From an uncultured Thermococci archaeon (GTDB lineage Archaea; Methanobacteriota_B; Thermococci; Thermococcales; Thermococcaceae): a stretch of 19,637 bases of DNA. A program made the translations under genes and the position numbers. Below the pieces are notes generated by a model. The model was not told the DNA's origin. It worked only from the letters and a program-made list of their open reading frames with translations, and did not search any database. Every line of letters begins with the position of its first letter. Position 1 is the stretch's first letter. Of this stretch, positions 1,482 through 3,274 are shown piece after piece. The stretch covers positions 1 through 19,637 of the forward strand of contig CAZAPD010000108.1 of NCBI GenBank assembly GCA_964487115.1. Reading direction: 5' to 3'.

Positions 1482-2810
1482 CTAAAAAGCATGTAGGATT
1501 GGAAACTCCTCAGGCTCATAATCCTCAAGCTTTCCATCCAGATAGTTCTCGTAACCCTTTAGATCCAAAAGTCCATGTCCGCTGAGGTTGAAGAGTATAA
1601 CTTCCTCACTACCCTTTTTCTTTGCCTGAAGTGCCCTGTCAATTACTCCTTTAACAGCATGAGCGCTCTCTGGTGCTGGTACTATTCCCTCTGTCTTTGC
1701 AAACAGATGCGCTGCTTGGAAAACTTCATTCTGATGGTAGGCTACAGGTTTTACAATTCCATGATTTATCAATATGCTGAGCGTTGGAGCAAGGCCATGA
1801 TATCTTAAACCACCAGCATGAATGGGTGGCACATAGTAAGTGTGACCCAGAGTATGCATCTTCATCTTGGGGGTATATCCTCCGGAATCACCGTAATCAT
1901 AAGTGTAAATGCCCCGTGTCATGCTTGGTGCGGCCTTGGGTTCAACTGCCACGAATTCGTAATCTGCCTTTCCCCTAAGAACGTCTCTGATGAATGGATA
2001 TGCAAGTCCAGCAAAGTTGCTACCACCACCAACGCATCCAACTATTATATCTGGCTCCTCGAACTCTTTCATCTGTTCTATCGCTTCGAGGCCTATGACT
2101 GTTTGATGCATAAGTACATGGTTGAGAACGCTGCCGAGGGAATATCGTGCGTTCTCATCCTTCAAGACGTCTTCAATGGCTTCGCTTATTGCTATGCCAA
2201 GACCACCGGGATGATTTGGATCCTCACTAAGAAATTTCCGTCCGATTTCAGTCCTGTCGCTTGGACTTGGATAGATTTCAGCTCCATAGAGCCGCATTAT
2301 GGTCTTTCTGTATGGTTTCTGCTGATAACTGGCACGTGCCATATAAACCCTGATTTTCAGTCCAAGAAGTGCTCCTGCGAGGCTTAAAGCTGTTCCCCAC
2401 TGACCTGCCCCTGTTTCAGTTACGAGCCTTTCAACACCTTGTTTCTTCGCATAATATGCCTGAGCCAGAGCAGTGTTTATTTTATGGCTTCCTGTCACCG
2501 TTGCCCCTTCATATTTGAAGTATATTCTTGCCGGTGTTTTCAAGACCTTTTCAAGATTTGTGGCTCTAAAAAGGGGTGTTGGCCTCCCGATTTTTGCATA
2601 GAGTCTCCGTACTTCCCTTGGGATTTCAGTATATTGTTCTTGGCTCATTTCCTGCTTTACAAGCTCTGTCGCAAAGATACGGAGCAGCTTCTCTGGTTCC
2701 ATTGGTTCATCTGTCTCTGGATCTAATGGTGGAGCCAACGGCTCTGGTAAATCAGACAAAATGTTGTACCACTCTTTTGGTATTTCCGAATCAGGTAGAA
2801 CAACTTTCAT
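1482..2810 (-). CDS. trpB2: TrpB2-type tryptophan synthase beta subunit (stand-alone PLP enzyme)
   Basis: N-terminal [16 protein letters not shown] extension typical of TrpB2. Motifs GSHKINTA (PLP Lys), [52 protein letters not shown] upstream. No adjacent trpA. Confidence 0.95.
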
Positions 2811-2834
2811 TGTTTTTCACCTCTTTGAGTTATT

Positions 2835-3035
2835 AAAAAAGTAAATCCCAAAAACGAGGGAATAAGAGCTATTGTCACAGGTGGATGGAATAATATATCA
2901 AAAGTAAAGCTGCCAAAAACAAACCCTCCTATTCACGCCAAAAGCAATCCCGCCTTAGAAATTCAAAACTAAGTGGGGGATTGAGGGGGATGTGATTAGA
3001 GCCAAAAACACTCACTCCCGGACGTCATGAGGCAT
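2835..3035 (-). promoter_or_regulatory. Candidate structured 5' leader of trpB2 with three 18-nt imperfect repeats, hairpins and a U-tract
   Basis: Minus-strand repeats GGAGTGAGTGTTTTTGGC (3001-3018), GGCGGGATTGCTTTTGGC (2937-2954), GGAGGGTTTGTTTTTGGC (2912-2929). Stems at 2945-2983 and 2860-2868/2926-2934. TTTACTTTTTT at 2835-2845. Confidence 0.5.
2996..3028 (-). CDS. Possible leader peptide MTSGSECFWL
   Basis: ATG ACG TCC GGG AGT GAG TGT TTT TGG CTC TAA on the minus strand, about 34 nt downstream of a BRE/TATA-like element. Adjacent Phe-Trp codons. Translation is not demonstrated. Confidence 0.3.
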   Translation of the reverse strand: MTSGSECFWL

Positions 3036-3056
3036 CAATGCATAGAAAGTTTTTAG

Positions 3057-3072
3057 GTTTAAGTAGTTTTTG
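3057..3072 (-). promoter_or_regulatory. Putative BRE/TATA promoter for the trpB2 leader
   Basis: Minus strand CAAAAACTACTTAAAC: A-rich BRE-like run followed by CTTAAA. Confidence 0.5.
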
Positions 3073-3104
3073 CTCTATTTGTTGAATAAATGACAAAAAG
3101 GGAA

Positions 3105-3170
3105 CTAACACTTTGCCAAAAGAAGGGAGGAGGGGGCGATACCGAGCTTGTTATAAGCTCGAACATCCAT
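3105..3170 (-). other. Small transcription unit: possible leaderless 21-aa ORF (MDVRAYNKLGIAPSSLLLAKC) or small RNA
   Basis: BRE/TATA-like AAAAATTATTTAAG (3190-3203, minus) about 25 nt before the ATG at 3170. Internal inverted repeat CGAGCTT-N5-AAGCTCG (3143-3161). CCCTTTTT tract after the stop. Confidence 0.3.
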
Positions 3171-3274
3171 ATATTAGCAAATTATACAGCTTAAATAATT
3201 TTTGTTCTGATACCTGAAATAATGACAAAATTTTCGATAATTTGCCTCATGTTTTTGTCATTCATCTAAATAGA

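Follow-up and report, generated by a model that had tools for sequence, protein, structure and literature searches.

What do the three similar repeats do that stand in front of trpB2, a stand-alone tryptophan synthase gene, in an uncultured Thermococci archaeon? In archaea almost no attenuators or amino-acid-sensing leaders have been described. A first-pass annotation of the 19,637-nt stretch of DNA analyzed here (the window) had seen in this region a structured leader, a candidate attenuator or RNA switch, or else an array of sites for an RNA-binding protein. The analysis of the leader in this genome and across the Thermococcaceae suggests another answer: the leader is probably a tryptophan sensor, in which frameshifting at Trp codons when charged tRNA-Trp is scarce would form a serial gate on trpB2.

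The trpB2 Gene and Its Transcript

The product of the gene scored 723.7 bits against the TIGR01415 profile (curated cut-off 518.85), which places it in TrpB2, and 179.9 bits against the TrpB1 model, under the cut-off of 392.45. Neither a trpA over cut-off nor a TrpB1-like match was detected in this genome (96.5% complete), and trpA was present in 16 of the 97 genomes of the family. TrpB2 salvages indole.

The BRE/TATA-like element previously pointed out upstream of trpB2 was confirmed (Table 1), and in the relatives a comparable TATA-like box stands at an equal distance from the conserved GATG. The leader lengths predicted from this GATG ranged from 54 to 278 nt in the relatives, and the 5′ leaders published for two trpB2 orthologues, 265 nt for TK1442 (supplement rows of PMC4247193) and 247 nt for TON_0147 (supplement rows of PMC5316973), both occur among them. 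In relatives, then, a long leader is indeed transcribed, and we infer one for this genome.

Additionally, some elements were observed outside the predicted transcript. Upstream of the promoter, ATGACAAAA is repeated at 3086–3099 and 3221–3262, including an inverted pair 22 nt apart, as a possible DNA-binding site, and a further TTTTGGC with a pyrimidine tract lies at 3113–3135. At 15098–17053, 12 kb from the leader, there is an ORF of 651 aa that contains KH-like and metallo-beta-lactamase motifs and that by sequence likeness we take to be probably the terminator FttA/aCPSF1; its nearness to the leader is probably a matter of synteny only.

Table 1. Features of trpB2 and its leader, in window coordinates.
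Feature	Position	Strand	Basis
trpB2, stand-alone tryptophan synthase beta-type enzyme, 442 aa	1482..2810	-	TIGR01415 profile match
Final open frame after three shifts, TGA 2809-2807 overlapping trpB2 ATG (ATGA)	2807..2914	-	sequence
Shine-Dalgarno (SD) sequence of trpB2	2817..2823	-	sequence
Conserved pyrimidine-rich 3′ element with 4-bp UCCC/GGGA hairpin, including the formerly proposed fourth repeat	2846..2868	-	alignment; hairpin in 49/49
Predicted +1 shift site 3: SD-like 2930-2922, TTT 2918-2916, TGG 2915-2913, unshifted stop TGA 2900-2898	2898..2930	-	duplex -10.4 kcal/mol
Predicted +1 shift site 2: SD-like 2955-2947, TTT 2943-2941, TGG 2940-2938, unshifted stop TAG 2931-2929	2929..2955	-	duplex -8.2 kcal/mol
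Open +1 frame, site 1 to site 2	2941..3003	-	64 nt = 3n+1
Leader ORF, frame 0: ATG 3028, 10 codons, Phe-Trp as codons 8-9, stop TAA 2998-2996	2996..3028	-	sequence
Predicted +1 shift site 1: SD-like 3019-3011, 3-nt spacer, TTT 3007-3005, TGG 3004-3002, C 3001	3001..3019	-	duplex -8.8 kcal/mol
Possible leaderless 7-codon ORF (uORF0), TGA overlapping +1-frame GTG inside site-1 SD	3012..3035	-	layout in 54/68 leaders
Predicted transcription start, G of conserved GATG	3036	-	TATA distance; 226 nt before trpB2
BRE/TATA-like promoter, TTAAA at 3062-3058	3058..3071	-	sequence; 26 nt 5′ of conserved GATG

Three Repeats With a Codon Logic

The three repeats were found where they had been placed before (3001–3019, 2937–2955, and 2912–2930, minus strand), and their 18-nt pattern has exactly three matches in the 2.06-Mb genome, all of them in the trpB2 leader. 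The first reading of this DNA had overlooked both a conserved ATG, at 3028, and the way in which the repeats are built from codons. Each of them consists of an SD-like tract, three bases, TTT, the Trp codon TGG, usually a C, and a stop a few codons on. Repeat 1 reads Cys-Phe-Trp in the frame of the leader ORF, with a stop two codons later, and the unshifted frame closes 1, 2, and 4 codons past the Trp codon at sites 1, 2, and 3, respectively. The distance from site 2 to site 3 is 25 nt, again 3n+1, and a +1 step at each TTT-T yields an unbroken path of 72 codons, the stop of which (2809–2807) overlaps the trpB2 ATG. Judging from these sequences, the repeats are best read as translation signals rather than as an RNA fold.

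Duplex energies were calculated with the anti-SD of this genome’s own 16S tail. The pairing stops 3 nt before UUU, and values of -8 kcal/mol or lower were reached at 70 of the 2283 genomic TTTTGG. Counted in register, however, GUGA ends 4 nt before the P-site codon; since the normal initiation spacing in this genome is 4–6 nt (mode 5), any push exerted by the SD would be at most mild. TTT is under-used before TGG in the long ORFs of the genome (77/323, or 0.24, versus 0.45 before all T-starting codons), and is also avoided before Cys (0.31) and Phe (0.37) codons. When the same cassette was searched for in this genome with other slip codons, using a narrow pattern, the trpB2 leader gave its sites 1 and 2 and no other locus was returned.

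Two further elements of the leader deserve a comment. The uORF0 is a possible side entry to the +1 frame, that is, a leak past site 1, as the GTG in the site-1 SD that its stop overlaps (54 of 68 leaders) could bypass this site. The supposed partial fourth repeat (2848–2855) has no SD-like tract before it, is off-frame on the path, and is part of the conserved 3′ element, a candidate site for a termination factor. The idea that this element pairs with the SD and start of trpB2 and hides them was not supported, as scrambled controls occlude as much or more: among the 58 leaders carrying the element, occlusion of the trpB2 start was 7.3 kcal/mol with the real element and 8.1 with the scrambled one, the real value being higher in 8 of 58.

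Frame Rules Across the Thermococcaceae Leaders

The site-1 motif was detected in 75 of the 97 family genomes (78 matches; 1 in the reversed control). A TrpB2 match was present in 73 genomes, and upstream DNA was obtained for 71 of these; together with one broken copy this gave 72 leaders, 70 of them distinct and 68 with a site. Excluded from the 68 were duplicates (L042 and L056), siteless leaders (L058 and L060), a gene without upstream DNA (L030), one whose start was not located (L085), and one cut by a contig end (G117). Site calling, blind to frame, was carried out in the 70 distinct leaders and gave 189 sites in total.

An ATG in frame with site 1 was observed in all 68 leaders, 12, 15, 18, or 21 nt before it. 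The spacing between sites was 1 mod 3 in 111 of 121 intervals, which took 12 distinct lengths between 25 and 142 nt. Five of the ten exceptions involve decayed third sites, where the loss of one base leaves the remnant in the passing frame; the others are three weak matches at the 3′ element, one neighboring TGG, and one interval spanning a missed site. A stop was met before the next site or start in 184 of 189 segments in frame 0, in 184 of 189 in the -1 frame, and in 2 of 189 in the +1 frame, which was open to the next site in the other 187. The full path of +1 shifts reached the trpB2 start region in 68/68 leaders, with 8.1 fully open leaders expected after shuffling, and it ended in ATGA (55 leaders), in frame with trpB2 (3), or within -15 to +17 of the start (10). 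Paths with -1 shifts or with no shift, which led to the start in 1/68 leaders, were discarded.

The length from site 1 to the trpB2 start follows the number of shifts: it was 2 mod 3 in 39 of 49 three-shift leaders, 1 mod 3 in 14 of 16 two-shift leaders, and 0 mod 3 in 2 of 3 one-shift leaders. Leaders that have lost a site have changed in length by the matching base, and the frame is kept. Alignment gaps were multiples of three in 99 of 125 cases. The slip codon, which is itself part of the site call, was UUU at 183 and CUU at 6 of the 189 sites; C followed TGG at 135 of them, and the passing paths contain 24 Trp codons among 4873 residues. A held-out set of 23 metagenome loci included 11 new ones, and all the complete new trpB2 leaders (8/8) ended in ATGA; of the other three, two were cut by contig ends and one was a transporter leader, the site 2 of which was missed by the filter. 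The genomes are kin, so these counts overstate independence, and the distinct lengths and compensated losses are the stronger argument.

On this evidence the element is real and family-wide, and it is quite likely that the leader is translated with serial +1 shifts. The earlier proposal of a conserved, long, and probably Trp-responsive regulatory leader is upheld.

Some leaders depart from the common layout. Of the two siteless cases among the 70, L058 has no leader and in L060 unrelated DNA replaces the leader and the gene start. L071 keeps a decayed leader before a trpB2 remnant, and L084 a leader before a broken trpB2. The shifted path runs into trpB2 in frame in L063, L025, and L031; in L063 the gene lacks its own ATG and lies in the +1 frame behind a single site, the GTG inside the SD being the sole alternative start.

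When the site-1 pattern was run over all species genomes, 25 loci were found, 21 in Thermococci and 4 in bacteria; the latter are single matches without a cascade and were taken as chance. No serial cascade was detected 5′ of trpB2 in 20 class-level relatives outside the family. In another family (f4; L113, L115–L122, L124, and L125), trpB2 is preceded by a 25-codon ORF ending in Phe-Trp-Trp-Trp-Arg-Tyr, then by a hairpin and U runs, an arrangement that, although archaeal, resembles the Trp attenuators of bacteria.

The Link to Tryptophan

The choice of codon was assessed in a non-circular way with a pattern that leaves out the slip codon and everything after it: it gave 43 matches, and 42 of them were followed by YTT TGG. 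The site was also present at trpC, the first gene of the trp operon, where it lies at the gene start in 15 of 18 matches to indole-3-glycerol phosphate synthase (IGPS), with TrpC encoded in the +1 frame (L204–L218; also L193 and L195–L202; the site is absent in L203, L219, and L220). All 15 starts show an SD and, 5–7 nt on, an ATG or GTG; TTT TGG comes three or four codons later, and a stop follows it within 2–9 codons. An SD well spaced for a start in the +1 frame was found in just 1 of the 15, and a +1-frame ATG giving 227 residues, which matches the annotated length of TK0252 (684 nt), in 10. In this arrangement a +1 shift at codon 5 or 6 would produce TrpC, and the start now annotated is probably an internal codon. 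At L063 and at trpC, the GTG (or the ATG in 10/15 trpC) could nevertheless be a real start.

Moreover, one or two sites were found 5′ of a gene for a sodium:solute (NSS-family) transporter (NF037979) in 16 of 21 matches, and the five matches without a site are more distant copies. In these leaders the last frame ends 1–28 nt into the gene. The best solved relative of the transporter is 4us3, that is, MhsT, which transports hydrophobic and aromatic amino acids, and the protein is a candidate Trp importer. In L131–L145 and L147, a class I/II aminotransferase gene often comes next after the transporter gene with its one- or two-site leader, and short hairpins over the SD were seen by eye in the transporter leaders. 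Codon identity and gene context together make dependence on Trp likely.

A Sister -1 Motif at Aromatic-Pathway Genes

A related motif, in which an SD and an ATG are followed, after three codons, by a codon for Phe, Trp, or Tyr, was found at the aro and tyr-phe operons. It has 60 matches in 31 of the 97 genomes, all ending in those three of the nine allowed codons, with none in the control; the pattern was drawn from some of the genomes on which it was run. The long frame was the -1 frame in 38/38 groups, encoding a Tar-like regulator or chorismate mutase, and these genes mostly have no upstream start of their own. This genome carries a copy (L249, G000:C77:20850), and others are L221–L260 and L188. 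Tar-like genes often have up to three tandem units (F, W, and Y) in front, and units in such a row read as an OR arrangement.

Taken as a whole, these motifs incline us, by a narrow balance, toward a wider reading in which the entire aromatic amino acid regulon of the Thermococcales would run on hungry-codon frameshift logic. A serial, Trp-specific +1 UUU-UGG AND gate, its steepness tunable by the number of sites (one to three), would control trpB2 and a Trp transporter, a single +1 shift would build TrpC, and a -1 OR gate (Phe/Trp/Tyr) would make Tar and chorismate mutase.

Proposed Mechanism

Ribosomes would start at the ATG at 3028 on a near-leaderless mRNA. With plentiful Trp, UGG would be read fast and the ribosome would stop 1–4 codons on, leaving about 190 nt untranslated. 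When Trp runs short, the ribosome would pause and be held by the internal SD while its tRNA-Phe sits on UUU; this tRNA would re-pair on the overlapping UUU, and GGN (Gly) would be read next. A shift would be required at every site, by which three sites would form an AND gate with a sharper response, and a ribosome past all of them would end on the trpB2 ATGA. Three shifts in series imply that the efficiency at each site must be high, and in E. coli UUU_U shifts less well than CUU_U (PMC5009743).

The trpB2 gene would then be switched on via termination-reinitiation, by protection of the U/C-rich leader against premature termination of the FttA type, or by both. We lean slightly to a combination of polarity relief and reinitiation, because trpB2 has its own strong SD, and this output is the least certain step. 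The accessible text of PMC12548453 gives ATGA as the commonest coupling overlap and has coupling fade past about 30 nt, archaea included, a range that fits all the path ends. FttA binds U-rich RNA, and its exclusion by ribosomes is offered in the FttA paper as a hypothesis only (PMC11616081). Of the conditional termination suggested earlier, what may survive is termination as the output, in the form of a factor-dependent polarity on RNA left untranslated, which frameshifting instead of alternative folds would set. The weak point is that the strong SD of trpB2, together with the occlusion result, leaves silencing by the leader conjectural.

Alternative Explanations

In the model of the first-pass annotation, alternative helices form a terminator/antiterminator pair or a switch, or the repeats are sites for an RNA-binding protein that Trp activates. 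The repeats are indeed conserved, the 4-bp hairpin of the 3′ element is kept in 49/49 relatives, and the leader is U-rich, as is the RNA bound by FttA (PMC11616081). The folding of the 253-nt leader, however, gave a z of -1.75, a slight advantage over shuffles, 12 of 200 of which were equally good, and the description as “structured” was not confirmed. The two Rfam matches were at chance level and far below the gathering score, and no pair with a mean probability above 0.31 was found among 50 aligned leaders. Allowing one mismatch at most, the proposed helices were kept in 0/49 (3019–3012 with 2995–2987), 8/49 (CAAUCCC/GGGAUUG), 9/49 (CUUAG/CUAAG), and 6/49 relatives (GAAUAGGAG/CUCUUAUUC); the UCCC/GGGA pairing alone persists throughout, and it is nearly invariant, so that it offers little variation to test. 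A run of at least five U before the ribosome-binding site was present in 8 of 50 leaders. Scanning of the leader with bacterial terminator models returned nothing, and the bacterial promoter scan was uninformative. The leader does have the short ORF with a Trp codon of a classical trp attenuator (10 codons, one Trp), and it lacks the conserved, mutually exclusive terminator and antiterminator hairpins and the U tract; likewise, neither the Rfam match nor the covarying aptamer fold of a riboswitch or T-box was found. A hairpin-based attenuator or RNA switch is not borne out by these results. TRAP-type arrays consist of many closely spaced (G/U)AG triplets, and the three 18-nt repeats, 25 and 64 nt apart, do not have that form. 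More generally, an array of protein sites is not supported, since it would preserve neither the 3n+1 spacing nor the one open frame beside two closed ones, nor would it compensate in length for a lost site, and such frame rules are not explained by the first-pass model. We regard this family of explanations as very improbable.

The serial, Trp-triggered shifts that we prefer have other competitors, in which the ribosome or the polymerase behaves differently. The frameshifts may be real and constitutive, working as a fixed-ratio damper, or they may respond to tRNA-Phe modification, temperature, or polyamines. Conditionality is beyond the reach of sequence alone, and modification of tRNA-Phe at position 37 and polyamines are described as altering frameshifting (PMC5009743). 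Such a reading is unlikely in view of the A-site UGG in 42 of the 43 matches of the codon-blind pattern, the presence of the site at trpB2, trpC, and the NSS transporter gene alike, and the sister motif, whose last codon, at genes of the aromatic pathway, is always one for Phe, Trp, or Tyr. It is still less likely that a chain of short ORFs is translated by termination-reinitiation, with stalling at Trp codons, no frameshift, and each SD-like tract serving a nearby start. The overlap of the uORF0 stop with a +1-frame GTG (54/68) and the GTG just past site 2 in this leader would suit a chain of this kind, NTGA overlaps being the commonest coupling motif in the accessible text of PMC12548453. 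Against it, few sites have a +1-frame ATG or GTG within 15 nt of the unshifted stop (7 of 68 in first position, 17 of 66 in second, and 2 of 51 in third), and no GTG stands in the SD of site 2 or site 3; a start at the TTG that each repeat contains was ruled out, as this TTG lies in the -1 frame, closed in 184/189. Finally, RNA polymerase slippage on T runs, rather than the ribosome, might change the frame, and a short T run is indeed present at each site. These runs are just 5 (151), 4 (32), or 3 (6) T long and polymerase slippage usually needs longer ones, and it would have no need for an internal SD or a Trp codon, all of which makes it extremely unlikely.

Implications

As a control circuit, nutrient-triggered frameshifts wired in series had no counterpart in the literature covered; as a recoding event, serial +1 shifting of this kind would be a variant of the prfB type. 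If it holds true, the annotated starts of trpC, Tar, and chorismate mutase are wrong, and a Trp-specific layer lies under the non-specific activator Tar. The natural series of leaders with one, two, and three sites offers a way to measure the effect of serial frameshifts on the dose response, and the host group is genetically tractable, so that one-base changes would give a direct test.

Comparison With Known Systems

The regulator Tar controls aromatic amino acid genes in the same family, as a DNA-binding activator without amino acid specificity. In the accessible part of the Tar paper, TK1442, leaders, and attenuation are unmentioned, as are TK1442 and trpB in the supplements of PMC6737238 that were accessible. 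According to a 2014 paper, archaeal attenuators and amino-acid-sensing leaders lack direct support. No prior description of a serial nutrient-triggered frameshift leader was found in the literature covered, from which subscription papers were mostly absent. The accessible text of a 2021 review gives fucA1 of Saccharolobus solfataricus, a -1 event, as the only demonstrated archaeal programmed frameshift, and does not contain the strings “Thermococc”, “Pyrococcus”, or “tryptophan” (PMC8211752); the main text of a 2013 genome screen does not mention the Thermococcales (PMC3711429). Expression of fucA1 depends on a frameshift in an archaeon, as proposed here, but its shift is -1 and senses no amino acid.

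Hungry-codon frameshifting in E. coli also takes place where an aminoacyl-tRNA limits; in the accessible text of a 2016 review it is incidental, with no starvation-specific function known for the trans-frame products (PMC5009743), whereas here the sites are conserved and would gate a biosynthetic gene. In the ermC leader ORF, Gupta et al. in 2013 reportedly observed ketolide-induced frameshifting that switches on the downstream gene; in contrast to the leader described here, that shift is triggered by a drug, takes place at one site, and does not act as a conserved sensor of nutrients. In bacterial trpL, a leader peptide ORF with Trp codons senses charged tRNA-Trp via the ribosome. The trpB2 leader shares with it a short ORF with Trp codons 5′ of a trp gene, and differs in having no conserved hairpins, in its single Trp codons each behind UUU, and in a signal that would be the reading frame, not the fold.

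A close parallel is the +1 site of prfB, where the slip sequence is CUU_U (UUU_U is rare) and an SD lies 3 nt before it (PMC5009743). Both have a YUU_U slip codon that can re-pair at +1, a slow A-site codon starting with U, commonly a C next, a short frame-0 ORF, and a frameshift used as sensor. An SD-like tract also ends about 3 nt before the slip codon in the leader, but in register this equals a short initiation spacing, so that the likeness in SD geometry is inexact. In the leader, however, the A-site codon is the sense Trp codon UGG and not the stop UGA, and charged tRNA-Trp is the factor that would be sensed; the host is archaeal, up to three sites stand in series, and the SD pairs in the archaeal GUGAU register. 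Unlike in prfB, the leader product is not fused to the trpB2 enzyme here, such fusion being predicted in 3 of 68 trpB2 leaders and in 15 of 18 trpC matches. The trpB2 leader would work like prfB and is not a member of its class, given its sense A-site codon and serial sites, while the trpC arrangement is the prfB layout on a biosynthetic enzyme.
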